From Styela clava (taxonomy: Eukaryota), in contig NC_135259.1 of assembly GCF_964204865.1 (NCBI RefSeq), positions 8,618,001 to 8,682,000 on the forward strand: a stretch of DNA of 64,000 nucleotides, in the 5' to 3' direction. The translations under genes and the position numbers were made by a program. The notes below the pieces were generated by a model, which was given only the letters and a program-made list of their open reading frames with translations, searched no databases and was not told the origin of the DNA. Each line of letters opens with the position of its first letter. Position 1 is the stretch's first letter. Below are positions 7,392 to 60,736 of the stretch, in pieces.

Positions 7392-10381
7392 TGCAACCTC
7401 CTTTCTTCATTTACTTACAAACAAAGAAAAAACTCGTTCAGAAATATTTTGAATGTTCGATTTCACTCGGAGTCGAACTCGAAATTAGAAACAAAGGAAG
7501 ATGTGAATGTTCGAGTTGTAGAAGAGTTTCAAAATTTTAATGGCGATTATCAAGATATGGTTATCGTTGAAGTAGATGAAGCATCCGATGAAAACTCGAC
7601 AGGTTTTGAATATGTTACTGATCAACCACTTGTTACCACATTCGGAAACATTTCGTTTGAAGATTACCAAACTTGGCAGGAATATCTGAAAACAAAATCA
7701 GGTAATATTTATTGTGATAAACACAATAATTCATATTCGACTTATGGTTAATTTCGACTGAAGCAGAGCATGATATACAGTATATACGAGGGTAAAATCA
7801 ATATGTATAAAAATAGGGCTATATTTAACCTATGACACCCGTCTTCCTTCTAAACATTATATTATCACGTGCAGTTACGTACACAAGTAATGCTTTGATA
7901 TAATGCTATTTTTCTAATATACAGAATTTGAGTGGTTAGTCATTTTGAATTTATTTTATGTTTCGCACATAATCTCCGTTCATTCAAAACGAGTATCACA
8001 GTTCACACAATGTGTTTTAGCACGGGGCTCTCCAAACATGGGTTCTCGGCCCCCGGCGGGTCGCGAAAGGGCTCAATATGGGTATTGGTACCTATTAATG
8101 TCAGAACTAGCAATACATCTTCCGCCTTTTGCCCCCACTTGTGTGTAAAAATCATTTTCGAAGCTAACTCATGTCATCACCGAAATGAGGCCAAGTTTCG
8201 ATCTTTTGTGCGAGAATATGCGAGCACGTCTCATTTAAGTTCCAGAGGGTCGCGACGAAAAATGTTTAAAGAGAACTGTTTCAGTGTAATCCTCTTGGTT
8301 ACGATATTACGGGGTCATTTAAGTCCATCATTATACAAAGTTAACACATGCGCCCTAAAGCTACAGACTTAAAAGCCGCTGAATAGACTTTTCATACAGC
8401 TTACTATTTGTTTAGTGGACTAAAAATTAAATGTTGTGCTTTATTTCATTTCTCTAAAATATTTGATACTATTTTTATATTCAGAATATTCTGACGAAAG
8501 TTCGTCAAAGCTCGACAAATTTATGCCAACGATATTATTCTGGAATCCAAAACAATTTCCAGACAGTATGATACCGAAAGAACCTATTTGTGGGGGTGGA
8601 TGCAACATCGTGACAGATCGAGGGCTGTATAATGTTAGTGATGCGATTCTCTTTACGATGAAAGAATATAATCTGACTGATTTGCCGAATAAATCATGGA
8701 GGTAACTAAAAATGGTTTGCTTTTATGAATATTTAATATTTAAATTAAATTACCCGAAAACAGTCATACAGCAGTGAAAAATTGTCTCTTTTATTTTCAT
8801 TTCAAATGTGGAGATCCGTTAATTAATTAAGCAATTGCAGTCTGCTGGTAGTAATGTTGCGAATGAATTTTCATTCGAGTACTCTGATGACAAAATACTT
8901 GCGAAATCAACTCAATTTCAAGTTATTAACTTCCTTATGAGGTATGGATATAGCTGCAAAAATCGAGTACATCGGCCGTTTCCTTATGTAATGCATCTCT
9001 TTATGGGTCATACTTTATTAGCGGTTAAGTTGTGAGAGATAGAATTTAAATACTGAGCACGCCTTTTTTAAATAGGGTTAGCATACATGGTCTCGATCGT
9101 CACTTGAATGGCTACTCCGTGGGTGGATAATGAGTTATCAAAGTATGAGCTTAATCTTTTGAGCACCTTCACGAAATGTGTACTGCTGCCTTTGTTATAT
9201 GTTGAGAAATGTTTTTTAAATTAACACGATATTCGAAATATTCATAGACATCCCAATCAAGCGTACGTATGGTGGTCTGAAGAGAGTACATGGACTTCCA
9301 AGATCATGTATGAGAAGAGGTTGGATCAGATAGAGGAAAACTATTTCAATTGGACAATGACATTTAAACGAACATCAGACGTAAATGCAATGATGATTCC
9401 GTATAAAGCCCGTGACTTTGTACGCCAAAGGCTATATGAGTAAGTAATATGTAGCCATTTGAAAATAGTCCATTTTGAACCAATGAAAAACACAAAATAC
9501 CTTCAAACCTATGCTTTTCTAAATATATTTTCGATTTTAGATATAAAAAGCTCCATCCAACTTCAACAGACACGAAAGTTTTACCCGGAGACGAATTTAT
9601 CCCATCAGGACCCAAAACAGCTAGAGAAATTTCCTATTATAAATCCCAAGCATCAAAACTATTGCAACGGAAGATCAAAACGGCGGCATGGGTCGCTACA
9701 AATTGTGGCTACACAGCTGGAGCAGTGTTGCGGAGAGATCTTGTAACAAAATTGCAATTCCAAGGTCTTCAAGTAGATATCTACGGTGGATGTGGCAATG
9801 AAGACGTTCCCAAAACATTGGCAGACTTTTCTGAAATGCTATCAGAGTACAAATTTTATCTTGCATTCGAAAACGCGTTACATTGTCGGGATTACATCAC
9901 AGAAAAATTTTGGTATAACGCACTGTACGCTGGGGTAGTTCCAGTAATATGGGGTCCTTTGAAAATAGACGTAGAAGCAGTTGCACCTCCAGATTCCTAC
10001 ATTCACGCCGAAAATTTTGATTCGACGGAACACCTTGTTGATTATCTTATACAACTAAGTAAAGATGATGAATTATATATGCGATATTTTACATGGTGGT
10101 GGAAAACTCCTGGATATTTTCCTATTTTTGGAGTAACAGAAACGAAAGAAAGCATAGGTAATAAAGGTGCCATGTTTGACTTTGAAATGAACGGACTCTG
10201 TCATCTTTGTAGTCTTTTAAACAAAGGTGTTCATAAGAAATATAAAAAATCTATTCCCTCTCTGCATAAGTTTTGGTACACAAATGAAACAAAAACTTGT
10301 ATAAGTCGAACCCATAATGCAAAATTTGAAATTTTTGGAAGCAAAAAAGCCAAAACCCCTTACAAGATAACAGTTGTTTAG
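7392..10381 (+). CDS. Alpha-1,3-fucosyltransferase (GT10). Exons ~7392-7701, 8485-8701, 9248-9439, 9541-10381; start codon unresolved
   Basis: Canonical GT-AG introns with consistent phases (1,2,2) join a stem to ILFWNP...CNIVTDR...SDAILF, RHPNQAYVWWSEES, YFNWTMTFKRTSD, AAWVATNC, VDIYGGC and YKFYLAFENALHCRDYITEKFWYNAL, which are hallmark GT10 motifs. Confidence 0.93.
8021..8278. mobile_element. Degenerate hAT(Charlie)-like MITE in FucT intron 1
   Basis: Begins CACGGGGCTCTCCAAAC...GGGTCGCG and ends GGGTCGCG...GAGAACTG, resembling CAGGGG...CCAAAC / GTTTG-GAACCACTG termini. No clear TSD. Confidence 0.45.
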
Positions 10382-20100: not shown

Positions 20101-21642
20101 TCCCTTTACACCGTATCACTTACAAATCAATAAACAGTGTCTCACCAACGTCTGTGCAATCGCTGCAATCTTACGAATCCACATCTGTTGTCTGTTTGAC
20201 CAATAGCTTTTTTTCAATGGACATACCTACATGCGACTTCTGTTAACTCGCAACGTTTTCATGTTCAGAATGTTAATCACTGGTTTACAAATAGCAAATA
20301 ATAAAAGAGTAAGTCCAATACAAATATTGTGGGCATCGTTTTCGAAGAACTCTTGTTGATAACGCGAACCATCTAAACACCTCCCAATGGGTCAAATTTA
20401 CTTAGTGAAACATTTGGCAGCATAAAACAGTCTTACCGTGGATTAAAATATAAACAAATGTTGATGGAATGTCGCGTTCCACAGGACTTAGAGGTAACTT
20501 GAGTAAAAAAGAAAAAACTTTCTGGCGCCTTCCATCTTTAAACACTGAAATTTGAAATCCACTGCGGAGCAAGTCGATTTTTTTAACAACAAACAGTCGT
20601 CTCTTCGGCAAGTTTAACACCAATGATTCAGTCATATATATTGATATATATGTGTGTGTCTAATGTACCGAAAAAGTTTAGTTGTCTCAAAGTTTTGTAT
20701 ATATTCATAGATATTTACTCATATTTTATGATGCCTACTACCCGTTCGGCTTTTTGACATTATATATATGACCACATCGCAGCATTGCCAACAAGAACGC
20801 CGTGAAATATATACCGTCGTTTAGCCTAAATTCGGCCAAATAATAAAAATAAAAACAACACGATTTCTGGCCATCCAAGTGTCCAAAATTTAACTGCCTC
20901 AAAACACTTTCTGTTACATTTATCTCAATATGTATATTATAGCAAAACTAAAATCGTATTTTAATGAAAGCACTGTATGGGTGATTGCATCTGTTAATAT
21001 TGTACATTTCGTAAGCTATAAAAACACATGAATCAATAAGCATAACACGATATGCAACCTGGGAAAAATCATTAATTGGGTTTTCCGGCTTTTGTTGTTC
21101 TTAATCACTTCCTCGAGTATATTATGTTACAAACGTGGCATACGAATGGCCATTCTGAATATCTTTACGAAAAGAGTCGCAAACTCCGCAAGTAAAGTCG
21201 CAACCTCTGCCGTAAGCGTAGGTGAAAACTTAAAATATGCAGTATATGAAGTTTAAAAATGTTCATAGCGATGAAGATATATTTTAGTAAAACGTTAAAA
21301 GCATAGTTTCTACATACACTTCATATCAGTGTCTTGATCTCTTGTGATTGGATGAATTGATTGACCTACTTCACATCAAGTTGTGTATAAAGGGAATGAT
21401 TACTATGGGCAGGGGGATATTCACTTGGCTAATACAGACAGTTCCCGAACTCGTACTAGAACTAAAATAAGAAAAATTGGAATAAAATTATGGCTTAACC
21501 CTAACCTGGTACACACACTACGGGAGTACCGCTAAGTGTGGTACCGCTCTAAACTGTCCTTTTCTAAGTACCTCGTTATGTAGGTCACATTCTCGGACGT
21601 TTAATTATCTTACATGATTATCTTCTATTCAGTTCTATACAG

Positions 21643-21850
21643 CAGGGGTGGCCAACACGTCGATCGCGATCTACCGCCGATATACACATACAGTATTTGA
21701 GTCCGGGGAAGCTCGATAGAGCATATTATTACGTAACAAAAGCAAGTTTCACCGCTGCCAAGGTTCAGACATAAACTTCTGCAGTATGCAAATCCAGTAT
21801 CCAATTTTTTCTAATTCCAAGCGAGCGAATAAATGAACTTGAAGGAAATG
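21643..21850 (+). mobile_element. hAT-type MITE left-end fragment (CAGGGGTGGCCA family)
   Basis: Begins CAGGGGTGGCCAACACGTCGATCGCGATC; internal blocks match the reverse complement of 30700-31122. Confidence 0.6.
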
Positions 21851-22355
21851 GTAGATTATATACCGAAAGGTTGAGCAGTCATGTCACAATTATGGTTTTA
21901 AAATATATACCGGTATTTATTTTTCTCTGTTTCGATAATACATGGATGCTTTGCAAGATTTTTTGAGGAATTTTTAACACTTACGACCTAAAATTGGGCA
22001 GGCTTTGGATCAGAATCATATGATTTGAATATATCTTATATAATTGAAGAAACATTCACTCCCGGTTCAATTATATAATCAAATTACCAAATTAAATGGG
22101 ACATAAGAAATGCAAACTTTTGTGTAGTATCCAATTAGCCAGCCATACACGATTAAGGCAATTCATATGGAATAATATAACCCTCCCTACTCCAACTATG
22201 TTAGTGGCCAAAAGGCAGGTACAGATGTAGGTACAGAAAAACATTGCCTTGTTTGTTACAGATGTTTTACTCTTTACCATTTAACGCTTACCCTTTTTTC
22301 AATTTCAATTATGAGAAAAAAAATTAAATCATTTTCCATTGTCAGAGTTTGCAAC

Positions 22356-23896
22356 ATGATACAAAATAGAATGTCATTGTTTCTAGACTTATTTTATTGA
22401 CAATAATTTTTATTGGTTGGTCGACGTACGAATCACAAAAATTTGTGCCTCCACTTTCTTTTGAAGTAGTGTCAAGTCCAGTTGAGAATGAATTGCGTAC
22501 GAGACGACATAGCCGAAATTCATCTATTATGATTGCTGTTATAGTTGAGCAGGCGAGGGGGGTCGTAGAATTCACTTCCTCAGTTTTACGACGATATCAT
22601 GATATTCCATCACAAGATATTTATGTTTCTGCACCAACAGCATTCGATGAAAAGACTATGCAAAAATGGTACGGTTATGATATAACAGTTTTCAATTCAG
22701 GATTAATTTCTGCTCAACTATGGAAACTTATTGAATCCTTCTGGAAGTCACAATATAAGGCCATATTTATTATAAACAGTGAAACTATTTTTTCGAAAGA
22801 TTGGAAGAGTTTTATATTAAGAAACATACACAAAACGGACGGATTTCTATCTTTGTATCATTCCTCGAATATGCACAATTATACGCACGATTGTGAACAT
22901 TTAGATGGTACTTTATGTATTGGAGAATCGACGGCAAAATTTGGAGTTGTTTTAGAGAGAAAGATTATTTCAGATTTGATGAAAAGGAAAAGTGTCGAAT
23001 TAGCAGAAATGAACTGGACAAAATTATTCGGAAATAGGAACGTTCGTATTCGATATCCCCAAAAATCATTCACAATGCAAATCGGACAAAGAAATCAAAA
23101 TGTTGAAAATTACTGCGGTGAAAATGAAGTTGCTTATCGATTCTCTAGATGTGAATTTCCTGATTGGATACAAGATGGAATTGAATTTTATTTTGATCGC
23201 TGCACAAATCCTGAGGAATCTTACATTACAGACTATTCAATCGAAAAAATTAATGAAGAGAAACGATTTTGGGTACGCCCGGTTATATCCTACTCATTTT
23301 ATGGAGATAATTGGCGATACACAAAAACTGCTCAAGAAAACGTAGCGCGTGTTTTTAGCATATACTCAGATTGGAAAATATGGATATATACTGATTATTC
23401 AGTTCCTGATGAAATCATGGCAAAAATGTGCGAGTTTGATGTGAGATTCATTGATATGACAGGAACGAATATTATAAACAAAATGTCCTGGCGATTTTTG
23501 GTCGCATCAGAGCCCGTTAAAATGTTTGCAGTGAGAGATATTGACTCTTGGTTACTAATGAGAGGAAAAGCAGCTGTGGACGAGTGGATTGCATCAGGAA
23601 GAATGTTTCACACGATGAGAGATCACGAGAATCATGCCCGACAACCTATGAATGGCGGTATGTGGGGTGGACGGTATAACGCAGTTCCAAACATGAAGGA
23701 GTTATTGGACGCGCGATATTTAACTGGTGCATATATGCAAGATATGGACTTTCTAAATGAAATCATTTGGAAAATTGCTAATGAATCAGTGTGGTCTCAC
23801 GACTCTCACTCGCTCCATAAATTTGGTGAAGATCACCCATTCCCGACGGAATTGAAAAATCCACGTGATTTCGTTGGCCGTGTGGCAATATATTAA
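22356..23896 (+). CDS. Intronless type II membrane two-domain putative glycosyltransferase, copy 1 (apparent 1-nt frameshift at codon 6)
   Basis: Open frame from 22370 to 23896, paralogous to 27636..29171 along its whole length. TM anchor, degenerate GT2-like domain, then VISYSFYG...WRFL...RDIDS...AAVDEWIASGRMFHTMRDH..H...GGMWG...FVG. ATG at 22356 aligns with the paralog's ATG but lies 41 rather than 42 nt before the shared TTG codon at 22397. Confidence 0.82.
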
Positions 23897-24288
23897 AATT
23901 ACCGTTCCTAATTAACCATAATCTTGTCAGATTGGATTGTCAATTTTTTTTCATAACACAGTGTGCAGATAAAATTCGCTGTAAACTCATTGATAACTTG
24001 GTAATTATATAAATTCGTAGTACTGCAATTCGAATCCAAGTCTTGTTTTCTAAAGAATCACAGGAAATTCTGATTATTTCCGCTTACTCATCAATGCACG
24101 GAAAAGGTATCTTGTTGTTCCTTATTATTAATCGAATGTAAAGAAATCGACGTGTTGAATGCCTTATAAATTTTATGATACCTCGAACTGATGATAAGAC
24201 TTTGTTTTACGCTGATTCAACGGCAGTGTGCCATTCCATATTATATGCGATTCTTTATTGATTTTAAAGACAAATAGCGGTTTATAAT

Positions 24289-25764
24289 TAAGGATGTAAG
24301 TTTCGGAATTTCGAATCGAAGCGATTCGAATCAACAACAATTCGAATCGATTCGAAGCAATTTTAGGAAAAACGGATTCTTTACAAAAATAATGACGCAG
24401 ATAACGCGAGGCAATTACACGGCACAGCGTCGTTGTCTCAATGTCAACATAAAACGTTTCTTCCTTTATTTTATAGCTTTTCCCAATTTGTAACAACCCT
24501 GGGGTTGTTATATGTATTCCTTTAGAGGAGCCAATGTTTAAGCTCAATTTTGTACGACTCAATATGTTTTACAAATATGTCATTATATATATTAACGCTC
24601 TACTGATTTGCCTTATAGTATAATTGAACTATTCCATATTAAAAACACAGGTCTGCGACGTTCCTCTCACAATCATTGCTTCTATTAATCATGGCACTAA
24701 ACTAGGGTTGGGGATTTCAGGGAAAATGTCCTAACTGTTAACCGGGTAAAATTATCCGGTTAACCGAAGCGTGACGTTTGACGTAATAAATTATAATTTC
24801 AGCTTGTTACGCCACAATGGTTATAAAGCAATTTTGAGTGATCTCATCTCGGTATCGCTCAAAATTATTCACGAATCGAGATAGTACATGATTGCTCTGC
24901 TGCAAGAGATATGTAGCGGGGTTCGGATATGTGGAAGTCTTTCAGAAAACCTGATTCCGTTATCAAACTTCATTTATGTGACAAATTTTCAGTGTTCGAT
25001 GTACAAATTCTACTTCGAGATATCATAAAGAAAAACGGCACCATCTGCGCACTTGTTGGATGAAATTGAATATACGATTTTGCAATAAAATCGTGAACAA
25101 TATATTTCGACCGAAAACAGATTCTGAATTTATCATTGTCAATTTTCATAATCAGCAATCTCAATATATCAATTTTTTCCACATTTATTGGGTCCTTACC
25201 CACATATATAGTTAGTGAAATTCTTTTGAAATAAACGCCGCAGGAGATAAATTTGTGGTGACGTAATTATTTTTGAAGGAATTCTACAGTATAAAAATGA
25301 TTTGTACCTGACATGTCAGTTAAAATAAATCGTAACCGTTAACCATTCCAAAATCGGTTAACCGGTTAATCATTCCCAGCCTTACACTAAACACATTTAA
25401 CTAGCGTATATCATTTGGATAAATTTTGAAGGTCAATTTGGGAAGGAAATTATCATTATATGTATGTAATTAAAAACGAATAATTACGTGATAAAAAATG
25501 AATATGTGACAAAGCCTAGCTCCATGAAACAAAAATAAATTCTCACAGCCCTAATATGTTGGGTACCTGGTGCATCTATTGAATGTATTTGTTTCTACTA
25601 ACTCTTTTATTTAATAATATTATTTACTCCAAATTCTTCCTGTAGTTAATTCACCTTCAAAATTCATGGATAATATGACGTTATACTAAATATAATCAGA
25701 TTCCGAAATATTCGAATCGTGACATTCTGATTCGGAAATAATATATTCGAAACTTACATCCCTA
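24289..25764. mobile_element. hAT-type MITE (outer element of a nested pair)
   Basis: TIRs TAAGGATGTAAGTTTCG / CGAAACTTACATCCCTA; TSD TTTATAAT (24281-24288) vs GTTATAAT (25765-25772), 7/8. Confidence 0.8.
24703..25384. mobile_element. hAT-type MITE nested in the 24289-25764 element
   Basis: TIRs TAGGGTTGGG / CCCAGCCTTA with subterminal GGTTAACC repeats; perfect 8-bp TSD CACTAAAC (24695-24702, 25385-25392). Confidence 0.88.
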
Positions 25765-27635
25765 GTTATAATAGATTCGTTTTTGTTTTGTATATATAAT
25801 TATCATATTCGTTTTTCGATGCTACAAATCTGGCCTACCAGGAGTCTATATCCCCATTCAACGATAAAGATCTTACGCTTGATGTCGGCTTAAGCTAAGC
25901 CTGTTGGAGCGAGAACTAATATTTTTTGTAGCATGGACCACATGGCGAAGACGCCTAACTATATCGATGACCATTATATACTGCCCTAACGGGAGCTAAA
26001 TCCAATGGAATATTTGGGAAGGTATTTTTCAATTCATAAATTAACTCAACAAATACTTGTATGTTACAAACAAAAATCCGTTGCGGCGCCAAAGCTGCAA
26101 TATACGTCACGATGCGTGACGTTATAATACAGGTTACTTCCTAGTCGGTAAAGTAGCCATTGGGTAATTTGCAATTCTAAAACTGGAATATACTTTTACG
26201 TCTGAGATTGTGAATCTATCAATTCTTAGCTTGTTTTAAAATATTTCAAATTTATATCGAAATTTTGATTGAAACTACATTTAGCAATAAAGCTATGAAA
26301 GTATCATTTTCATTTAGTCTCAATCTGGCCTCGCTCTTTCTGTTTCCTTCTATCAATATGTATTACCGTATATATATTTTTTTTCTATTGCGTTGAAACT
26401 TCACATCGAGTTTAAAAATCTGAAAGTGCTCAATAAAAAGACAAATGACTATTCTATTCATTGGTTAAAAAGTTATTTTAAATTGTTGTGAAAAACTTGG
26501 CTATACCAAGAAACTAAATTGCAAATAAAAATAACATAATAGCAAATTAGTTTCCATAAATTTGATAAAGTCAGTATGTTTGGATATCGGTTTGTTCAAC
26601 ATCTAAATGACCATGAATTTCACATCATAAATTTCATATTTACTTTTCATAGGCTGATTTAGTAACAGTTTTGTTATGTTGATATTATATTAGTAATTTT
26701 AAAAGTAAGTTTTGAATTTCTAATTTCAAAAACCTAACAGTAGAAATCCATAGAAATAGAAGTACCAGTTTAATATATCGTTCTAATGTTCACTTTCTTT
26801 ACCGTCATTTCATTGGATACAGAAATACAATTAGTTGTAACCAGGAACATATCCTAGCCTAGAGATAGATGTGAGAAATGCAATCAATGCCTTCGGATAC
26901 CAACTATCACATTTTAGTCCCTATTATTTTACTTGAACAACTCTTACTATCCCCATAATATCTTTTGATTCATTTCCAATATTAAACATAAATTACAATG
27001 CTATGAGGCAATAGCAATTTAAAGCGTCAAGTTAGGTTTATATAAATAAAAGAAATCTAAATATTCAGTAACAGAAAAAATTATAAAAAGTAATTTTTAG
27101 ACGAAGCTACGAATAAATATGTTCCTGCAATGTTCAGGCTTGAATTTCGCGGCTTCAATCCCTCACTCTCTACCTGTCAGCTTACAAATTGTAGATAGAG
27201 GATATATCGGTGATGTCAATATTAAATAATATGAGAACCCAGACGTCTTACTGTGAGTATAAGAAAAATTTATTAAAATTTGTTTGATAATAAAATTACT
27301 AGAAATCAGCACCATGTGACCGGGTATGATGGTATAATGACCAATGGAAAATAGGTTAATAATGGACCAAAACCAATATATTATTGAGGCACTGCAAATA
27401 CGTAAATCTGTCAACATAGCACATGGAGAAACCAGTGGTTTATTAGACGCAATTTTAGGGTTTCAGTTCACTTGGCAATTCGAAGGACACCTTTAAGCTT
27501 CATTTCTCGTCGTCACAACGTTCACAGTTATGGCAGAATAAACCATGGTTGGTGGCTCAAACGCTATACTGTGCGTGCGAAGAAACGTTTCCTATCTCTT
27601 TTTATATAGGCTGGTAAAATGGACTGAACAATATT

Positions 27636-29171
27636 TCAGTATATTGCTACTCTACCAACAAAATCACGTGGATTTTCTAATTTCGTAGGGAAAGGATGGT
27701 CTTCACCAAATATATGGAGCGAGTGAGAATCGTGAGCCCATACAGATTCATTGGCAATTTTCCAAATTATTTCATTCAAAAACTTCATATCTTGCATATA
27801 TTTATTAGTCATAAACCTCGCGTCCAATAACTCCTTCATATTTGGAATTGCATTATACCGCGCACCCCACATACCGCCATTCATAGGTTGTCGGGCATGA
27901 TTCTTGTGATCTCTCATCGTGTGAAACATTCTTCCTGATGCAACCCATTCGTCCACGGCAGCTTTACCTCGCTTCAGTAACCAAGAGTCAATATCTCTCA
28001 CTGCAAACATTTTAACGGGCTCTGATGCGACTAAAAAACGCCAAGACATTTTAGTTATAATATTCGTTCCTGTCATATCAATGAATCTCACATCAAACTC
28101 GCACATTTTTGCCATGATTTCATCGGGAACTGAATAATCAGTATATATCCATATTTTCCAACCTGGGTATATGCTGAATGCACGTGCAGCGTTTTCTTGG
28201 GCAGTTTTAGTGTATCGCCAATGACTACCATAAAATGAGTAGGATATAACAGGACGAACCCAAAACCGCTTTTCCTTATTAATTTTTTTGATTGAGTAGT
28301 TTGGTATATAAGATTCCTCAGAATTTGTGCACCGGTCAAAATAAAATTCAATTCCATCTTTTATCCAATCAGGAAATTCACATCTAGAGAATCGATAAGC
28401 AACTTCATTTTCACCGCAGTGATTTTCAACATTTTGATTTCTTTGTCCGATTTGCATTGTCAAAGATTTTTTGGGATACAGAATGGGAATGTTTCTATTT
28501 TCAAATAATTTTGTCCATTTCATTTCTGGCAACTCTGCACTTCGTTTTTTCATCAAATCTGAAACAATACTTTTCAACAAGACAACTCCAAATTTTGATG
28601 TTGATTCTCCAATACATAGAGAACCATTTAGGTTTTCACAATCGTATGAATAATTGTGCATATTAGCAGAATGATACAAAGATAGAAATCCATTGGTTTG
28701 GTTAATGTTTCTTGATATAAAACTTATACAATTCTTTGAAAATATGGTTTCACCACTGATGATAAAAATAATTTTGTATGCTGACTTTAAGAAATATTCA
28801 AAAAGTTCGAGCGGTGACGTAGAATCACGATCCGAATTGAAAACTGTTATGTCTTTTCCGTACCAATCTTGCAGCGTGTTTTTATCTAATTTTGATGGCG
28901 AAGAAATATGAATATCATGCGATGGTATATTATGATATTGACGCACAACAGACGAAGTAAATTCCACAATTCCAGTCTTGTTTTGCACAATAATTCCAAT
29001 CATAATATCTGATTTTGGACCAATTTGTATAGCTTGCGATAAGATCGTTTTTTGGGAAATTTTTGTGATAGATGCTATGCTGTATCGTTGTGTTTCGTAC
29101 ACTGACCATCCAATATAACATATTGTCAATAAAATAATGCCCGATATAACTGCGACTCTAGTCCGAGTCAT
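27636..29171 (-). CDS. Intronless type II membrane two-domain putative glycosyltransferase, copy 2 (511 aa, intact)
   Basis: Complete ATG-to-TGA ORF with a short basic N-terminus, TM (VAVISGIILLTICYIGWSVY), stem, degenerate GT2-like domain, and a C-terminal domain with RDID (DxD), MRDH..H and GGMWG motifs. Confidence 0.88.
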   Translation of the reverse strand: MTRTRVAVISGIILLTICYIGWSVYETQRYSIASITKISQKTILSQAIQIGPKSDIMIGIIVQNKTGIVEFTSSVVRQYHNIPSHDIHISSPSKLDKNTLQDWYGKDITVFNSDRDSTSPLELFEYFLKSAYKIIFIISGETIFSKNCISFISRNINQTNGFLSLYHSANMHNYSYDCENLNGSLCIGESTSKFGVVLLKSIVSDLMKKRSAELPEMKWTKLFENRNIPILYPKKSLTMQIGQRNQNVENHCGENEVAYRFSRCEFPDWIKDGIEFYFDRCTNSEESYIPNYSIKKINKEKRFWVRPVISYSFYGSHWRYTKTAQENAARAFSIYPGWKIWIYTDYSVPDEIMAKMCEFDVRFIDMTGTNIITKMSWRFLVASEPVKMFAVRDIDSWLLKRGKAAVDEWVASGRMFHTMRDHKNHARQPMNGGMWGARYNAIPNMKELLDARFMTNKYMQDMKFLNEIIWKIANESVWAHDSHSLHIFGEDHPFPTKLENPRDFVGRVAIY

Positions 29172-30699
29172 ATTAACTTGAATGTTTCATGGAACTGTAA
29201 TAAACAAATTAACAAATTATATTAAATCGTTTAGAATCTCGCTAAGTAAATTTGTAATTGGAAATCAGCAAGAAAAAATTTCTGTTACGGGTTATGCAAT
29301 AAACCAGGGGCGTGCAACCTTTAATGCAGGAGGGCCAGATACAAATACCTGGGTAAAACAGCTGAATGCATTTTTATTTAACATAGGCTTTCTAGTAGTT
29401 GCAGGCACAAAACTTTTAACATACGTTGTTCGCTTTGCACAAACTAGCATTGTAACGTCATAGGCATAGATAATAAATTGGACTCAGGTATCGGCATTCA
29501 ACGCAAGTTACGCAGTCACTCACACGTACCAGAATAAACTGAATTGAAGACTGGTTTCGCGAGTCGTACAAGATCAATACTTAGCTACAAATGCGGTATC
29601 TAGTATGACATTTCACGGTTCTAAATCGCATAATATCTTTAAGCTTTAGAAAGTATGCAAGATATATAGTTGTAAATATATATTACAATCTGATCGAAAT
29701 CCTGAAATCAAGCCGCTTTTCATTTTCAGGTAAAATCTTTAAAATTATTAGATCAAAAGTTTGTTTTCGAACTGAGTAGCCTACTTTAAAACTATGGAAC
29801 TACATTTTGCAATAAAAATGTCTTTATGTCTATGCTAACTGACTGTATCCGGTTTCCTCCTTTCATCAAGAAATTGTTTTTGCTCTTTTTGAATTAATTC
29901 ATACCATAAAGATTTTTTATAGCAATAACTATGATATGCACAGATGTATGCCATCGTCAAAGCCAAATTTGTACATTATGTCACAGAAACTCATGCGTCT
30001 TTTTATTTTGATTCAGAAAAGAAACAATAACCGATGTAAATTATAACAATTAAATGATAAAAAACTGTCAAATTTAACTACAATTTTGGTAAAAAGAAAT
30101 ACGTAACCTGTACAATTATCATTAAGAAACATTTCCCACGTATACCTGATATTGCGTACTAAAATACAAATAGAGTAAACCGTTTCAAAACCCGATCCCT
30201 GATATTACACAATATCCTTCAACGAAAAATTAAAGTAATAGTCACCTACACTTCCTTCCTATACATAGGTCTGAATTGTTGTGATATGTCATAGAAATAG
30301 TCTATTGATAGGCATTGCTATATTTATGTGACAAAAGTAATATTTTGTCAGTGAGGCCTGCCTATGAATAAAAAATGTAAAACGTAAAAATGAATGAAAA
30401 TTTGAACGGTAAACAAAGATTTTTATTTCATTTCATTTTAAATTTGTAGTTTATTTTTTGTCACTTTGATTCGTCTTTCTCCTTCCAATATATTGATTAT
30501 TTTTATTACCAGACCGTTTAAACGCCGAATTGACGCAAAAAATACAACCGGAAAGACACTAAACTAGCGATAGCGAATTCCTTCAAAACACCTTGCCAAG
30601 TAGCTTACCTATATTATCCAAGCAGCAAATAATAAATATTCTCAAACCATAAATGTTACATGACTGCTCAAACTTCAGTATCTAATTTACAATTTTCTC

Positions 30700-31149: not shown

Positions 31150-33670
31150 AGCTTATTAGCAATAATATTTCTATCATCTCTCCACTGAGGCCTAGAACAA
31201 TCTGTAGACTAACATTGACTAAAAAGTGAACCCATGCGTTGAAATTCAGAAGATTTTAAAACTGGCCATTTAAGATCGCATGGTCCGATGAACATCCACG
31301 TTATTTGTGTCATAAACTGAAATTTTTTGAATTATGTTATCCCGACGATGGACCTATTTTAAAACGACTGTTTTATTCCTGTAATCGTTTTTATCCCAAC
31401 GCCAAAATGGTCATTTTATGATCATGGTTTGCGCATGAGTTGTGCTCGCAAAGCTCATAATATTAGGTTTCACGATCGTGAAGTGGATACGTTTCTTATT
31501 GTTACTCAACTTATGACCACTGGGATAATACTAACGTGACAATATAATTTTTCTACATGAATGTTTTACCTAAATAATTGATATAACCAGTGAATGTAAT
31601 ACAGCGCAAGTTAGGTAATTTTTGTCTTATTATGTCAAAAAATCGATTCTAAATTACTTTGGTAATATGTATCAGATTTTAATGAGAATTATTAAATAAA
31701 ACACTGAGGTTCATCTTCTCACTTTACCACAATAAAAATCCTCTGCTTGCATTTAAACCTTTGTACTCGGCTAGTTGCGACCCTTGAATGGTCTACCATT
31801 GTGTATATTCATGTCCAAAACACATATATATATTTACGATATTATAGTTAATGTTTAATCCGCACTTCGAGTCGCGCACCAAGCCCATCTAATACATTTA
31901 TTGTTGCCAAACAATATATTTTAAAATGTACTGCAAAAAATGATCATTGCACGAAGGCTTGTCTTTAGGCAAAGCAAATCTGTCACAGAGCTTCTTATGC
32001 GATTCATTTTGTTTGTCGTATTATTATTATTTGTCAATATATTACTTATGTGGGTGCGCCAAATACAATCTATTTTAAACTAATAAAATTGCAGTATAAT
32101 GTTTCATTTTGTGTATAGGGGAAATGTTCGTGAGTGGTGCCATGACCCCACTACTAACGAACACAGACGGCAACTTCGAACACAGACTAAAAAACTGTTG
32201 TGAACAGCTCATTCCATAGATTACGCAAATCGGACCGTTTTATCTTCCAAATGACGATAATGCGACACATCATGTACAATTTTATGGCTTTTAAACGATT
32301 GACTGCCAATTATGCGTTCGAAAACTGCTTCTCTCTGCCTAGCATAGCCCATATGCCGACTATATAGGCGAGTGCAATTTACCCGCCCCGTAGTTGAACG
32401 TAATAGTTGATTACAATATTGAAGGAGGACTCTTTTCCGTGAGCCACGAGTATTTGTATTTCACTTGGTTTTCCAATGATGATGCAATAGATAGATGATT
32501 GTGTCGACTCGAGTGAATAAAGTACATGTTTTAGAGACGTTCGCCAAACAATATAGGCGCTATTAATGCTGCTGCTTGGTGTAGGAAATCTAGGGATTTG
32601 TTCAAAGACAATTGTTTTAAAACAATTGTTTTAAATCAAGTTTTTTTTGCCTGTTTTGTTTAAAATGGCTGTACTATTTGATTTTTTGTATTGAATAGGT
32701 TGAAGAAAAATGGATGTAAAAACTTGCCAAGCGCTTCTTATTTGCAATAAATCCCTCAAAACGCCACAAATATCGATAGAGGCTCACGCACACCTTCTCA
32801 AGCTGTAGTTCAGTGGTTGGCGCAGTAAAACGCAACCGCAACGCATTACGTGAACGACCCTGCTGCGACGAAACCACCTTGCGAAAATTGAAATGCGATC
32901 GAATAAATGAGTTTGTATAATCTTGAAAAACCTCTTCACTTCAACCTTTATAACAAAGTATGCTAAGCATAAATTAACCGAACAGTATTAACCGTAAAAA
33001 TGCCTTAATTTTATGAGAAAAATGTCAATACATGAACTCGAAATCCATAATATGGCGTCATAACAGATTATAGTTGTGGCGTCTTTGCATCACCTGACTC
33101 TTATAATTAGCAAACGCTAGACTAGGGTGTCTCATCGTTTATATCAGTAGATTGCCACCGATGTAAGCATATTCTTCATTATAGCAACCCATTCGTTTTG
33201 CAGAAGGCTGCCCTCGATCGAATTGCTTTTGTACTAGGCTCGTGAGCTGAGTTTCATGATTTTTCTTACTTGAAACATCTCTCTGATTACTCGGATAAAC
33301 AATCCGGTAAAATCTTATCACTTGGTAGGTACAAACTTGGCGATAAATGTACGCAATAGAAGTAAAGGTCAAAATAGGAATTTTTACTTCCATTTTTAAA
33401 TTATAATTACGGCTGCGTGTGCAGTTGCCAGAACGTTTCGGCGTAGTTTCACAGCGTTGCAAGGCGTATTTCATAAAAAAATACAGGAAAAAAATGATTT
33501 AAAACAAGCCATTTGTTTTAAAACACGATGTTTTTCTTTAAATTGATAAAAAACAAAACCCTAACTGGAAATCGACTTGCGTATATATATTATATGCTGG
33601 GCAAATGTATTTGGTATAATATTAATGTGATTTCCTGCGTAGCTTGCTTTATCGATAAACACATTCTGCA
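31150..33670 (+). repeat. Local non-coding duplication, copy A (homologous to 39200-40890)
   Basis: Collinear high-identity blocks, e.g. TTGACTAAAAAGTGAACCCATGCGTTGAA.TTCAGAAGATTTTAAAACTGGCCATTTAA, GTACTCGGCTAGTTGCGAC, CCGTGAGCCACGAGTATTTGTATT and CTGCGTAGCTTGCTTT.TCGATAAACACATT. Confidence 0.88.
32591..33564. mobile_element. TIR element inserted in duplication copy A only
   Basis: TAGGGATTTGTT ... AACAAAACCCTA inverted ends with TGTTTTAAAAC subterminal repeats. Absent at the homologous site in copy B (~40805). GGAAATC is repeated on both sides (32584-32590, 33567-33573). Confidence 0.7.
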
Positions 33671-39199: not shown

Positions 39200-40890
39200 T
39201 GACTTATTAGCAATAACTTTTCTATCATTCCACCACTGAGGCCTAAAACATTCTGTTGACTAACTTTGACTAAAAAGTGAACCCATGCGTTGAAGTTCAG
39301 AAGATTTTAAAACTGGCCATTTAATATCGCATGGTCCGATGAACATTCACGTTATTTGTGGCATCACCTGATAATATTAGGTTTTACGATCGTGAGGTGG
39401 ATACGTTTCTTATTGTTACCCATCTTATGACCACTGCATGGGATAATACTGAACGTGGTAATAAAATAATATATCCTGAATGCCATGATTTTTCTACAAG
39501 AATGTATTACATAAATATTTAATATAACCACTAGAGGAATAAAGCGCAAGTTAAGTAATTTGTGTTTTATTATGTCGAAAAATCAGTTCTGATATACCTT
39601 GGTAATATGTATTAAATTTTGCTGAGAGTTATAAAAAAAACAAAAAACACTGAGGTTCATTTTCTCACTTTGCCACAATAAAAATCCTTTGCACCTATTT
39701 AAACCTTCGTACTCGGCTAGTTGCGACTCTTGAATGGTCTACCATTGTGTATATTAATGTCCAAAACACATATTTACGATATAGTTAATGTTTAAACCCC
39801 ATTTTGAGTCGCGCACCAAGCTCATCGTACTATTTTTTATCGTGAACCAAATGATATATTTTGAAATGTAGTGTAAAAATTGATCATTGAACGAAGGCTT
39901 GTCATTAGGCAAAGCAAATCTGTCACAAAACTTCTTGGTTTATACATTTTGTTTGCCGTATTATTATTATTTGTCATTATATTACTTATGTGGGTGGGCT
40001 AAATACAATATATTTTAAATTATTAAAATTGCAGTATCAGGTTTTATTTTGTATATGGGTGAAATGTTCGTTAGATGGTGCCATGACTCTACTACTAACC
40101 AACACAGGAGACAACTTCGAACACAAACTAAAGAACTGTTGTGAACAGACCATTCCTTATATTACGCAAATGGACCGTTTCATCTTCCAAGGCGACAAAT
40201 CCTGTACAAATCTATGTCTATTAAACGACTGACTGCCAATTATGCGCCAGAAAACTGCTTCTGCTTAGCTTAGACCAGGGGTGGGCAACCTCTTTCGGTT
40301 CGCGTGCCAAAGTCAGCTTAATTGACAAAATTCTTCCGCGTGCCGACCAAAATTGTCAATAGCTCACTCAGTTGTTACGTCATATTATATTTCTTTGTAA
40401 CCATGAATGGACAGAATGAGATTAAATAAATAATGGATTGTTAACAAACAATAATGAATAAACAATGTGTTTCATCAGATAATTCTGAAGTTTAAAACTT
40501 TTTATCCGAAGGAAAATGATCTCGTTTTCGAGGCCTCGCTCAGTTGCCGGCCGAATAAATGGGCCTAATTTGGCAAACGGGCCTTATGCAGACTATACAC
40601 GCGAGTGCAACTTACGTATCCGTAGTTGGACGTAATAGTTGATTCCGATATCGAGGTAGTATCATTATCCGTGAGCCACGAGTATTTGTATTCGAATTGG
40701 TTTTCCAATGATGCTGCAATAGATGTGTGTCGACTTGAGAGAATAAAGTAGATGTTTTATTGACGTTCGCCAAACAAAAATGCTGTTACTTCGTGTAAGA
40801 AATCGGCTTGCGTATAATATTCTCAGCAAAATTGTATTTGGTATGATATCAATGTTATTTACTGCGTAGCTTGCTTTGTCGATAAACACA
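39200..40890 (+). repeat. Local non-coding duplication, copy B
   Basis: Collinear with 31150-33670; carries its own private insertion starting CAGGGGTGGGCAACC at ~40276-40580. Confidence 0.88.
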
Positions 40891-41778
40891 TTTGATAATC
40901 CAATAATAGGAAATTGTCCTGGTAATTTTGAATTTCTTAGAGGCGGATATATACTTACACTGGCGTTAAACTTGAAGAGTTGAAGTAGCCTTTTCCGATC
41001 GTAGGAGGTCCTGGTCCAGTCACCATACTCGATACAAATAACGCTACGCACAATAAGCTAAGGCTTGTAGGTTGTAGCTGTCTCGATAAATCATAATCAG
41101 CGAAAAACCTAAAATGACCTATTTCATTGAATTCAACATACTATTAATATGGAACGGGTATAGATACCGTTAAAATCCATAGTTACAATCCACAATCGCC
41201 ACCGAGACATCAGAACATATTACACAGTTTGTGCACTATATATCCCGGAGTTTGGTCTACGTTGCGGCTGGTGATATTCTTATGCATGAATTTTAATTTT
41301 GATTTCAATAGTAAGTTTAAAATATTGCTTTTATGTCTTTTGAGTCATAACTAAAACTCGGTTACTTGAAAATACAGTGATTCGCTCCTTATCAAAACAG
41401 AACGAATATTGAATAGAAGTTGGATATCGGATTATCTGATTGCTCTATTGTCAAAACCACGTCAGTTTGAACAAAAAGAAATTCTATTTCTGAAAGTCTG
41501 TAAATACAATCATATACCGATTTCGCCATCTATGATTTTTTAACTTGACTTCGGTTGGTTCTTATAAAATATTAAATCAGTTTACAGGATAAGGCTGCGT
41601 CTATTTATTTAGATAATGTATTTGCCGCCATTGAATGAATTGTTTCGATCGAAATGAAGTAGAATTAAGCATATGTTTTTATTAAATGAATATAAGCGTG
41701 CTAATCTGTTGCATTTTATGTTTTTACTATTCAGAAAAGCATCAGTGAGTTCTTGCATGTTTCTACAATAAATCTAAA

Positions 41779-47700: not shown

Positions 47701-50700
47701 GTTTACAAGTGCATGAAATCGCTGCTGCCGCGCGTTTGGTTGTAAAGCGCCCTTGGTCGCTACACGAGTAAGAACTTAAGTAAATGACGTTACGAGCATG
47801 CGGGGGAAAGTGTTTTTCGTGTGCGGAACGTAAACGTGCTACGTGCCAACGTAATTGCTTAACGTCGCTGCGTAACGGCGTAAATGTGTTAGGTAGTTAT
47901 TTACGTCGCCTCGATCTCGCGACAAACGAAATCACGAATAAAAATGCATCCAAAATTTGAATGGTGCAACATAATTTCAATCTAATGGTATCACTGGAAA
48001 GCTATCTTCAACTTCTACAAATGTTGTCGATAATGTAGTAGGTTAAATCGAAAACAAATTGAAGTTTTTTCAATTAGATTTAGAAGTTTTTTTTTCCACT
48101 TCAATTTTGCCAATTTTCATAAGATGATCACGATATTTTATCTCAATTTTAAAGTTATACTTAGTCCTGTAGATTATCTTTCACACGATGTAAAACTTGT
48201 CTAAATATAATATATGGTTCGCGAGATATGAGGGTTTCAAAGTTGCATACCTCATACGGGATGCCAAAGCCACTAAAACGGCTCTCAGCGTCAGAAGACT
48301 TTCTCGGGAAAGCCGCTATAGCGGCTTTCAGGGTTCAAAGAGTTAATGTTTTTTACAGTGCCCAACAAACAGTAAATATTGCTTAGTTTTCGTAGTTTTG
48401 CGTGTTATTTGTCAGTTTTCAGTTGCGTTTCAAAAAAAATTTGTGAATTAAATATCTTAATTGTCATTATGTCTTCAAAGCAGCATTAATTCAATTGCTA
48501 TAATCAAAAATGAGTCTCGCAAATGCTGCGATAGACTAAGCTAAACTAAGCTATCAGTGCTTGTACGCGGCACATGGTTGATTAATTTTAATAAAAATGA
48601 GGGTTTTCAAACACGTAAACCAGCTTATAAGCGCCAACAAATCAAAACAATCTCGAAATAAGTATAAATTGTTTTGCAATAGTAAAGTATAGGAAGAATT
48701 TCTCTGAGGTCAAGGGTCGGAGAAACGTCTTTCCGGCCAGTCCAGTCTTTAGAGATCGCCCTCGCCTGCTATTGTCCACGAAGGAATCGAGATGGTCATG
48801 TTTTCGTCCGCCTTGCGAATTAGGTCACTAAGGATGTAGTGCCACATTATAAAATACTCCCATAGCGCGTGTCTTGGGCCATTGTTCCCCGCGCCAAAAA
48901 GGGGGGCTTGTGAGCCAGACGAATAGAAGATGAGCCGCAACAATTGAGAGTGGTCAGGCTGCTTACGAATTCAGTAATCACTATACGTCACCTCCTTCCG
49001 TCAAACTCACAATACGTCACATCCTTCCGTCAAACAAGGCAAATAACCGTCTTCGTCAGGTTTTCGAAATGTGCGTGAACTTTGGTTATATGTAGGATAG
49101 CTAGTAACATATTGAAAATCATAATCTTTAACAAATTTTCAAAATTCCTCGCTATCATATTGAGGAACGTTGTCAGAAATAAATTTTTCTGGTAACTTGG
49201 AGTAAGAATTCAACGTCACCAAGTACTTTCTGCAGGCTATTCAAACAATATGGGCGCAATAATTTCCGATTGTCGAGAAGGAATCTCATAGATGATTATC
49301 TATTTATTTTGTAGATTGGGTTGAAATACTTGACACGTGGTACATGTCGAGACATAATCCTGTGTAGGCATTTTTGGTCAAAACAAAAATAAATTTCTTG
49401 TTCTACGAATACATTCCTGTATTCCAATGTGACTTGCCTGTATGCGCTGCATATCATATTTTTTGGCAGATTCTGGTGCCACAATTCGACATCTTTTTGT
49501 AGATTGGGTTGAAATACTTGACACGTGGTACATGTCGAGACATAATCCTGTGTAGGCATTTTTGGTCAAAACAAAAATAAATTTCTTGTTCTACGAATAC
49601 ATTCCTGTATTCCAATGTGACTTGCCTGTATGCGCTGCATATCATAATTTTTTGCAGATTCTGGTGCCACAATTCGACATCTTTTTGAATAGATGGGTCT
49701 TTTTAAAAAGTAATATATTCTTGCACGGACTGTGGAAGGTGTTTCTTAGTAGCCTAATTAAGGCTCCGAGAGTTTGCAACGTGAAATCTTTCTTTGTAGA
49801 TATTTGTAAAAAATCATGCATTATTTTGCCAACACTGCAATCTTCCAACATGTCAATTTTCGGATTTGTCCCATCCTTACTACCTGCTACCTGACTGATT
49901 TTTACAAAAACTATAAATTTAATAGAAAACTCCTGCTATTTTTGTTTTACAAAAGTCAAACCAATTTATTTATGTGTTTTGAAGAAGATTCATACTTTTT
50001 ATTGATATAATGCTTCTAAAAATGCTACAACATTGTGCTCTCAAAATCATGCATTATAATCTAAGTATCCATGTACAATATTCAGGAACCAGTATTTCGT
50101 CGTTAGAATACTTGAGCACCGGAAACTGGATGACATTGAAGATTCAAGCAAATGTTGTGGGGACTGGAATACCAAAAGTCAATTTTTCCGCCAGTTATTC
50201 GGCCTTTACAGCAAGTGGGTTTCTGAAGTCTAAGATATTTTCTAGAACAGAATGTCATCACAAATCTAAAGAATTAATATCGAATAAAATGTCAACTAAT
50301 ATCAATATCGAATGAAATTTGTCTCAAAATTCATACCAAATCAATCAAACACTCAAAAACGTGTAATTTTGGTAGCGAAAGTGTTTCATAAACAAAAATC
50401 GAAATGTTCTTGATAATCCACTAGGTGACAAATCTTTCAAGGTATTCGCTGACTCATTACGATATTGAGCGATGAAATGACAGCAACGTTTAAGTTAGGG
50501 TCATTATATATATATTCCTTTGATATGCCATAGTATCTTAACTTTAGCAAAGAGTATCGATGCTTCCCACTGGCCAAGTTCTCAGTGCGGTGCGTGTGAT
50601 TGAATTTCTTATTTATTTTCATACATGTGCCATGTAGAACCTTGTAAGTTTTCTGCTCAAGAAACAAACTGTAGTACATTAAATCGGTGTATCTATAATG

Positions 50701-59872: not shown

Positions 59873-60736
59873 TTATACGTTCTTCGTGAAGCAAATCACA
59901 AAAAACGACAACTTTATTGTTACTTTGACGTCACAATCCAGACTATTTTCTAATTTCCATAATTTTTTCATTTTTTTTATACATTCTTCCAAAGGATCAT
60001 GATTTTCGTTTTCCTCCACCCATTCCTGAAACATGTAATATTCCGGAATTGCATTAAAATGTGTTCTTAAGTCTTCCAGTGAGAGAGAGATTGCACCGAC
60101 CAAGTCATCATTTCTGTACTTCCTTACTCCTGATATTCTGTTGTAAACATTTTCGTATCGCAAAGTAAGCTCGTATTGCAGAGGAGCGTGGGTTTTAAAC
60201 CACTCCGCCGATTATCTGAGGTATTGCTCCAAGATGTTCATTCCAGACTGTAGTTGTGAACCCTCATTTTCATGCAGCATAATGTCCACGAAATCATGTC
60301 CACAAATTATGGTGCCGCCTGTAGATTTCAAAACTCTTTCACATTCTCTTATATAGGTTTCAACGTTCATGTAATGAAATGCAAAGCAACACCACACTAG
60401 ATCTACCGTATTGTCCAAGGCTGGCATATTACTCTCATCTCCAATAACATATTGAATGTTATCGCTTGAATTTTCCTTAATCGCCATTTTTATTTGTTCT
60501 TCGCTTTTGTCAATACCTATTACTTTACTAAAATGTTCCGCAAATATCTTTGTTTGAAGACCGTTTGCACATCCCATATCTAACATTAGATCAAACTGAA
60601 GTTGATCTGATTTGCGATCAGGGTCAAGCCGCAGTAAGAAATCAATAATGAACTTTTTCAATATATCCGGATAAGTAATCTTATCCTTTACGAATAACTC
60701 AGCAACATGGTGATTTTGATATAATCGGGCCTCCAT
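59873..60736 (-). pseudogene. Intronless class I SAM-dependent methyltransferase (Methyltransf_11-like) with one in-frame TAA at 60212-60214
   Basis: Motif I MLDMGCANG, VIGIDKSEEQI, VDLVWCCFAFHYM, RVLKSTGG. The frame stays open past the TAA (SAEWFKTHAPLQYELTLRYENVYN...) to the stop at 59873, giving ~287 codons. Confidence 0.8.

Follow-up and report, generated by a model that had tools for sequence, protein, structure and literature searches.

Introduction

LARGE1, EXT1/EXT2, and CHSY/CHPF are tandem Golgi enzymes of the GT-A fold, built from an anchor and two glycosyltransferase (GT) domains, one of which is inactive in some of them. Among animals, tunicates are the textbook example of a body polysaccharide acquired through gene transfer. 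In a 2026 survey of transferred genes in Ciona, the accessible part lists eight groups, including CesA, GH6-1, UDP-galactopyranose mutase, and GH16 (PMC13390645), and cold-shock genes are the transfer case named in the available portion of another report (PMC7540406). Here, we describe an inverted pair of genes for putative two-domain glycosyltransferases in Styela clava. The pair lies in a 64,000-nucleotide stretch of RefSeq assembly GCF_964204865.1 (contig NC_135259.1, forward-strand positions 8,618,001 to 8,682,000), called the window below. In the explanation that we favour, with a probability of roughly 0.55, the two genes arose by a recent inverted duplication within a 16-gene family of single-exon Golgi GT-A enzymes, which would have been captured once from a mirusvirus-like marine large DNA virus and then domesticated.

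Organization of the Gene Pair

The pair sits on a 22.5-Mb contig, with spliced genes as neighbours. Its features, in window coordinates, are as follows.

22725..28807, inverted duplication with arms 22725-23899 and 27633-28807, 86% complementary, spacer 3733 nt
22344..22345, forward strand, splice-acceptor-like AG after a pyrimidine tract, 10 nt 5' of the copy 1 ATG
22356..23896, forward strand, coding region of copy 1, frameshifted near 22371 in the assembly, with an open-frame allele in other sequencing runs
22373..22429, forward strand, predicted signal anchor of copy 1 (19-residue hydropathy 1.84)
22523..23257, forward strand, N-domain of copy 1, GT13/GT2-like GT-A fold (predicted), degenerate, with N-S-E at the DxD place (22775-22783)
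23276..23887, forward strand, C-domain of copy 1, putative unclassified GT-A domain, motifs intact
27636..29171, reverse strand, copy 2, an intact, unbroken single-exon open reading frame (ORF) of 511 residues
27645..28256, reverse strand, C-domain of copy 2, putative unclassified GT-A domain, motifs intact (model with a predicted local distance difference test score, pLDDT, of 96)
28275..29009, reverse strand, N-domain of copy 2, GT13/GT2-like GT-A fold (modelled on paralogue L013), degenerate, with S-G-E at the DxD place (28749-28757)
29100..29156, reverse strand, predicted signal anchor of copy 2, residues 6-24 (19-residue hydropathy 2.19)
29195..29196, reverse strand, splice-acceptor-like AG, 23 nt 5' of the copy 2 ATG

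A sequence-only reading of this DNA had proposed two convergent, intronless coding sequences of ~510 residues, each with an anchor. The anchors, the inverted convergent orientation, and the unbroken frame of copy 2 bear this out, but copy 1 is interrupted in the assembly. Translation from its ATG at 22356 would end at a stop 14 codons on, and the long frame does not open until 22370. Sequencing runs (X1 and others) were used as contigs; those called assumed-RNA runs here are RNA by guess, none being on record as such. In the contigs of X2 and X3, copy 1 appears as an allele with an open frame, and a loose end in X5 is compatible with that allele. Run X12 carries the window allele without a gap, and X10 and X11, from the same sample, each have one gap (position not given) in the contig over the copy 1 region. 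The frameshift looks like a segregating polymorphism. A pure assembly error is unlikely, because the same allele occurs in X12.

The absence of introns holds for the coding sequences but not for the 5' side, where a pyrimidine tract and an AG directly precede both ATGs. The AG upstream of copy 1 may be the acceptor of an intron in the 5' untranslated region or of a trans-splice site. Contigs from three assumed-RNA runs (two studies) start at 22349-22356, while the genome-sized run X12 extends further upstream, and a contig of X1, also an assumed-RNA run, terminates at 29194, the first base past the copy 2 AG. These contig ends near acceptor-like AGs are weak hints of a spliced leader. The X1 contigs do not cover copy 1, which proves nothing about its expression. 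Short repeats of very high copy number lie on either side of the pair and between its two members (bins 21334-21667, 24674-25341, and 29016-29683), and the first of these bins is also abundant in assumed-RNA runs.

Fold and Motifs of the C-domain

The C-terminal motifs expected from the sequence are all present in both copies. Copy 1 has RDIDS at 23534-23548 (its RDID at 23534-23545), MRDHENH at 23615-23635, GGMWG at 23654-23668, and QDMDFL at 23738-23755; copy 2 has RDIDS at 27984-27998, MRDHKNH at 27897-27917, GGMWG at 27864-27878, and QDMKFL at 27777-27794. The arginine and both aspartates of R-D-x-D are invariant in all 97 aligned rows, and the motif follows strand E88-92 of the model. The His-rich motif H-x-x-R-D-H-x-x-H is specific to the C-domain family. 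Of the 97 rows, 89-96 retain the positions of this cluster and the Asp of QDMxFL; for the H, D, and H of the cluster and this Asp, the figure is 95-96.

Structural comparison of the copy 2 C-domain model agrees with the GT-A fold that had been anticipated. The best Foldseek matches are to glycogenin of family GT8. In VIA, heparosan synthase ranks first (Z 13.9, root-mean-square deviation (rmsd) 3.6, 176 aligned), followed by WrtF and KfiA (both 13.4), SpsA (12.9), and glycogenin (12.2). Rows 1-3 lie within less than 1 Z of one another, and GT2 enzymes stand ~1 Z below the GT45-type ones. The nearest named ESM Atlas clusters are GT8 and Nucleotid_trans. As had been supposed from the sequence, the family is uncharacterized: neither domain could be assigned to a family by searches of Pfam, NCBIfam, PHROGs, and PDB sequences. 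Neither the proteins nor the C-domain profile matched a retaining GT8 or GT45 family in Pfam, NCBIfam, or PDB sequences. On the evidence of the model, the C-domain is best described as a GT-A domain of no assigned family, because its GT-A structural neighbours stand at only 8-12% identity.

Fold and Degeneration of the N-domain

The N-domain was modelled on paralogue L013 (pLDDT 87), and here too Foldseek and VIA both return GT-A enzymes. POMGNT1 (Z 16.2) and MGAT1 (Z 15.7) lead the VIA rows (rmsd 3.0-3.1, 190-194 aligned, 16-18% identity), and GT13 accounts for the top two VIA rows and the top seven Foldseek rows. The Pfam GNT-I model PF03071 matched neither the window copies nor six paralogues, and a genome search with it reached other loci only, namely the host's own multi-exon GNT-I-family genes. 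The Pfam GT2 model PF00535 is matched by the N-domain in 10 of 12 scanned marine relatives and by none of the host copies.

Five N-domain columns are invariant in all 14 marine relatives: the Arg of xNRxG, the first Asp of FDD, both Asp residues of DxD, and the His of HxG. The window copies have lost four of them and have Glu for Asp at the fifth, so that S-G-E and N-S-E stand where all 14 relatives have D-x-D. Paralogues on contig C10 retain more of these columns. Judged from the alignment, most donor- and metal-binding residues would thus be gone from the N-domains of the window pair.

A Family of Domesticated Paralogues

A C-domain search of the host genome gave 24 candidates and 23 matches. 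Sixteen lie in open frames of 508-632 residues, which are long, single-exon, and spread over contigs C10, C13, C17, and C18; the coding sequence is free of introns in every one of them. The remaining matches are broken pieces. When a marine N-domain relative served as the query, the same 16 loci and three broken pieces were recovered. No multi-exon parent of either domain appeared in these own-genome searches. A CC-x6-C-xx-C repeat between anchor and N-domain occurs in one to three copies in 10 of the 16 paralogues and partially in four, and is absent from the window pair. Four full-length relatives, 42-53% identical, come from other sequencing runs. A third copy, broken by stops and frame breaks, lies ~7-10 kb past the window end (G000:C13:8688700-8691700; L150, L016, L021, and L022), and its best pieces are 79-90% like copy 2. 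In paralogue L018 (G000:C10:10629655 region), the N-domain motif is D-D-D, and the C-domain lacks the His cluster, GGMWG, and QDMxFL. L018 would thus mirror the window pair, a hint of a division of labour between the two domains.

The family is under purifying selection. When copy 1 is compared with copy 2, the ratio of nonsynonymous to synonymous substitution rates (dN/dS) is 0.29 in the N-domain, 0.12 in the C-domain, and 0.90 in anchor plus stem. The G+C content at third codon positions (GC3) of the window copies is 0.30-0.31, compared with 0.29 and 0.35 in two neighbouring host coding stretches. Of 75 ORFs from five virus-side loci that were searched against the window, the 24 host loci, and 100 kb of flanks, only the three copies of the GT gene gave a match. 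The pair are domesticated host genes, because their neighbours are spliced, their GC3 is host-like, their dN/dS is as given above, and the GT gene alone among the virus-side queries matches host loci. Contamination and a provirus or giant endogenous viral element are rejected on the spliced neighbours and on the lack of matches in the flanks to the other virus-side ORFs.

Relatives of the Two Domains

A two-domain profile was searched against 1.84 billion representatives (E<=0.001) and matched 5346. Among the best 150 of these, one has both domains fully, one has them partly, 14 have the N-domain only, and 134 have the C-domain only. The 14 N-domain relatives are 32-38% identical to copy 2. 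Twelve of them carry a signal anchor and eight carry the CC-x6-C-xx-C repeat, which is absent from all 156 C-domain-only proteins. The earlier idea that the animal fitted the anchor to an acquired enzyme is therefore probably wrong. Downstream modules in the N-domain relatives vary and include GT29, GT31, GT10, GT8, LicD, and FkbM. The gene for one of these relatives, P0074, aligns with paralogue L006 in one piece over repeat and N-domain (E 3e-55).

A third module links the carriers of the two domains. It is 73% identical between the N-domain carrier P0076 and the C-domain carrier P0058, which argues that N- and C-domains circulate in one module pool. The module is found in 23 of the 156 C-domain proteins, one bivalve protein among them, and often stands just before the C-domain. 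It corresponds to residues 469-721 of P0076, has no Pfam match, looks GT-like by eye, and also occurs in P0022, P0182, and P0042 (Mercenaria). Its place in the bivalve protein matches the order seen in marine polyproteins; the bivalves may represent a separate capture from the same pool.

For the C-domain, the best identities to copy 2 are 52% (Mercenaria), 44-52% (marine modular proteins), 42% (viral contigs), and 40% (bacteria). In a tree of 47 rows drawn from ~220 available domains, nine two-domain rows group together (100/98) inside a clade of 33 eukaryote and marine modular rows (100/94); seven bacterial rows and seven phage or IMG/VR rows fall outside it. The N-domain tree is unrooted, and the marine rows form one side. 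The sequence-only reading had associated the family with bacterial polysaccharide loci, marine viruses, and scattered invertebrates. Phages, bacteria, and scattered invertebrates do hold C-domains, but none of the three bacterial loci read (plasmid collection) is a polysaccharide locus, and the C-domain falls among eukaryote and marine modular proteins, away from the bacterial and phage rows. A bacterial origin is rejected on the position of bacteria in this tree and on the 40% best bacterial identity.

The C-domains of Acinetobacter (L025:5530-6840, next to recN) and Azospirillum (L026:9188-10633) lie within tetratricopeptide-repeat proteins outside polysaccharide loci; the fusion suggests that the acceptor there may be a protein. 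Cyanophage S-SRM01 has a stand-alone C-domain (L027:6016-6696) in opposite orientation within a cluster of glycosyltransferase and nucleotide-sugar genes.

A direct scan of IMG/VR with the host C-domain gave no match, while an alignment scan gave 111 relatives, of which 80 were kept (33-43% identical). N-domain scans of IMG/VR gave no match or one weak match at 25%. Scans with the C-domain polyproteins P0058 (no match) and P0028 (two distant matches) did not establish a viral context for such proteins. A word-indexed search for longer N-domain proteins was empty, which means little because a full HMMER search found such proteins. Of the ESM Atlas clusters that come closest to the N-domain, most are viral, with taxa resting on few members.

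Viral Context and Probable Origin

The N-domain relative P0074 was traced to metagenome contigs of 69-75 kb. Its 21.6-kb neighbourhood is gene-dense, with 17 ORFs covering 84%, and includes genes for a kinase, SNF2-RING, dUTPase, trypsin-PDZ, Ras, SET, and DHFR. Ten consecutive genes of this block are syntenic with the IMG/VR record G001 and 42-86% identical. G001 is a 179-kb record with direct terminal repeats that encodes RNA polymerase beta, heliorhodopsin, and Snf7. Across locus L111 and G001, the accessory core functions of mirusviruses are represented by Snf7, heliorhodopsin, trypsin-like, Ras, SNF2, RING, and RNA polymerase genes. Two adjacent conserved ORFs of L111 (18294-19181 and 19246-20082), without Pfam or PDB match, are putative mirusvirus triplex capsid proteins by their appearance.

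The accessible parts of two reports give RNA polymerase beta, heliorhodopsin, and Snf7 as mirusvirus core functions (PMC10132985, PMC12768974). According to the former, heliorhodopsin occurs in 64% of mirusviruses and 5% of nucleocytoviruses, and trypsin-like proteins in 73% and 9%, respectively (PMC10132985). The available text of the latter states that Snf7 was not identified in nucleocytoviruses (PMC12768974). TBP was not found in G001, and searches of it for the capsid and A32 of nucleocytoplasmic large DNA viruses were empty, with no positive viral control. Mirusvirus-like appears to be a fair label for L111 and G001, judged from accessory genes and not from an HK97 capsid, terminase, or portal. 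We prefer it to mirusvirus because TBP was not found, G001 has no match to the family, and capsid and terminase are not part of the evidence.

The evidence on origin comes from the N-domain. Host paralogues have it in common with the marine proteins, together with anchor and cysteine repeat, and large DNA viruses that infect protists may have been the path by which the gene reached an animal genome. Most simply, a cassette of anchor, repeat, N, and C would have been captured once from a shuffling module pool. The horizontal acquisition supposed earlier is likely, and transfer would have run into the animal, because the coding sequence is intronless, the animal distribution is patchy, and catalytic residues were lost on the animal side. 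The one mirusvirus host-range study that we note excluded animals, by the part of it that is available (PMC10827195).

Several observations weigh against this explanation. On the viral side, no protein with both domains was found, G001 itself has no match to the glycosyltransferase family, and a viral context is tied to only one of the 14 N-domain relatives. Outside the two-domain group altogether, no protein was found to join N and C. The nearest C-domain relative beyond that group is a bivalve protein at 52%. The C-domain tree does not decide whether the group's sister lies with the three Mercenaria proteins, with protist-like rows, or with marine rows, and neither tree shows which way the transfer ran. 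As for activity, the C-domain is only 8-13% identical to any solved enzyme, and no more than ~1-2 Z separate retaining from inverting families. The N-domain model is that of L013, not of the window copies, in which a Glu may be retained at the putative catalytic-base position (the alignment there is ambiguous).

The bivalve C-domain relatives would also fit a protist or a vertical route. The same enzyme could have come from a marine protist or alga, eaten or symbiotic, with viruses drawing modules from the same protist pool, so that the viral likeness is one of cousins. The C-domain clade does include the EukProt proteins P0025 and P0059 as well as long protist-like proteins, and an anchor with lumenal cysteines is a eukaryotic secretory feature. 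Many alga-derived genes in Ciona are cited in the accessible part of PMC7540406. Nevertheless, the sole N-domain relative with a readable context comes from a virus-type block, most of the closest ESM Atlas clusters of the N-domain are viral, and all 16 long host frames lack introns. We regard a protist donor as a serious but rather unlikely alternative.

Proposed Activity

In the favoured explanation, the protein would be a type II membrane protein of the Golgi. Its C-domain would bind Mn2+ and a nucleotide sugar through R-D-x-D and transfer the sugar onto a secreted or surface glycan, with the H-x-x-R-D-H-x-x-H cluster and the Asp of Q-D-M-x-F-L shaping the acceptor site. GT8 and GT45 are retaining families. 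By analogy with them, we lean slightly towards transfer with retention. In the window pair, the N-domain would be a folded accessory domain, for acceptor binding or as a scaffold, because most of its donor- and metal-binding columns are lost. Some paralogues may keep, or have kept, N-domain activity.

A polysaccharide of tunic or mucus is our guess at the most likely setting of the product. To our knowledge, no polymerase has been assigned to the sulfated L-galactans of the tunic. The galactans themselves are described in the available part of PMC10609765, and nothing in this analysis ties the family to them. A wider scenario, in which a mirusvirus gave a chordate lineage a ready-made Golgi two-domain glycosyltransferase that expanded to at least 16 copies whose domains split the work of making a tunicate-specific glycan such as these galactans, is speculative and on balance improbable.

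Alternatively, both domains could be active and take turns in building a repeating disaccharide, one by an inverting GT13/GT2-like step and the other by a second step, as in LARGE1 or heparosan synthase. Such a bifunctional co-polymerase would fit two GT-A domains in one lumenal chain, the first place of heparosan synthase among the C-domain VIA rows, and an N-domain dN/dS of 0.18-0.67 in all pairs tested. The third DxD position is D or E in all 16 paralogues, and four C10 paralogues read EDD, NDD, HDD, or DDD. However, four residues invariant in the marine relatives are missing from the window copies: the Arg, the first FDD Asp, the first DxD Asp, and the metal His. For the window pair the idea is doubtful; it may apply to the C10 paralogues.

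It is distinctly improbable that the gene is an old animal one, with a C-domain inherited vertically in common with bivalves and lost in most animals, and a single-exon form that is a retrocopy that gained or kept the N-domain. The Mercenaria proteins, which give the best C-domain matches beyond the two-domain group and sit in the same unclear node, speak for it. Yet the upstream module of the bivalve proteins differs, being one shared with marine polyproteins, and was not found in the host genome (one query). The own-genome searches gave no multi-exon parent, and N-domain and cysteine repeat point to marine modular proteins. That both domains are glycan-binding modules of an expanded recognition or defence protein is very improbable: birth-and-death expansion with broken copies, the segregating copy 1 frameshift, and the motif losses of L018 would fit, but most paralogues keep catalytic-type C-domain motifs, with a C-domain dN/dS of 0.11-0.20 where computable.

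Other Features of the Window and Genome

The multi-exon neighbours noted from the sequence were confirmed. A multi-exon GT10 fucosyltransferase gene (8424-10381, forward strand) lies ~12 kb upstream of the pair, with no link shown, and exons with weak LDLa and CUB matches (50604-55783, forward strand) belong to a multi-exon receptor-like gene. A duplication joins 31152-33665 and 39203-40892 (spacing ~7.2-8.2 kb, many blocks 83-93% alike), and the frames scanned in it had no Pfam match. Near the window end, a class I methyltransferase frame (60212-60736, reverse strand) and a frame similar by eye just past it (L150:220-804, reverse strand) possibly form a tandem family. The 377-Mb genome also holds a GH6 match over the cut-off, as suits a tunicate (PMC7464555, PMC10334666).

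Comparison with Known Systems

A literature search of titles and abstract beginnings, made without supplements, subscription papers, or CAZy, found no paper on this glycosyltransferase family and none joining mirusvirus and ascidian. If the wider mirusvirus scenario is true, an animal would possess a functional gene family derived from a mirusvirus, something for which our searches brought up no report, and CesA would be joined by another foreign glycan synthase. With its expansion, selection, and probably foreign origin, this glycosyltransferase family offers a concrete candidate for tunic glycan synthesis. Because the C-domain family is large (the 5346 two-domain-profile representatives) and has neither a Pfam model nor a solved member, one assay would name an activity for thousands of proteins, among them phage, bacterial, protist, and bivalve ones.

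Among established families, GT13 (POMGNT1 and MGAT1) is closest to the N-domain by structure and shares the Golgi type II topology predicted here and the EDD-like motif of L013. It differs in its low identity and in the failure of the GNT-I model to match, and the GNT-I-family genes that the host does have are multi-exon genes at other loci. The nearest N-domain relatives by sequence are instead the marine modular proteins, mostly GT2 in Pfam. GT8 (glycogenin, LgtC, GAT1) and GT45 (KfiA and the N-acetylglucosaminyltransferase domain of heparosan synthase) share with the C-domain a GT-A fold with DxD and supply its top structural rows. However, these structural neighbours are 8-14% identical and give no hidden Markov model match, GT2 enzymes are nearly tied with them, and the His-rich motif is peculiar to the C-domain family.

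LARGE1, EXT1/EXT2, and CHSY/CHPF have the anchor and two glycosyltransferase domains in common with the pair, which differs in having no sequence match to them, a single coding exon, a patchy distribution, and virus-like relatives. The transferred carbohydrate genes of tunicates are likewise foreign-looking, carbohydrate-active genes on host chromosomes, some of them single-exon, in the accessible part of the Ciona survey (PMC13390645). The family described here is not among the eight groups of its Table 1, a comparison that leaves the supplementary list of 435 proteins outside (PMC13390645). It also differs in a viral or protist-looking donor and in numbering at least 16 copies.

In the mirusvirus-like modular polyproteins (L111/G001), the order of anchor, cysteine repeat, and N-domain is that of the host genes. 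Marine polyproteins also have the C-domain as a module, alongside the third module known from an N-domain carrier. Unlike the host genes, the marine viral polyproteins have variable downstream modules (LicD, GT29, GT31, GT10, GT8, FkbM), join N and C in none of the examples found, and keep the N-domain motifs intact. The Styela family thus probably combines two known kinds of system, the tandem GT-A Golgi enzyme and tunicate gene transfer, with an unclassified catalytic domain, a virus-like pedigree, and a probably foreign origin.

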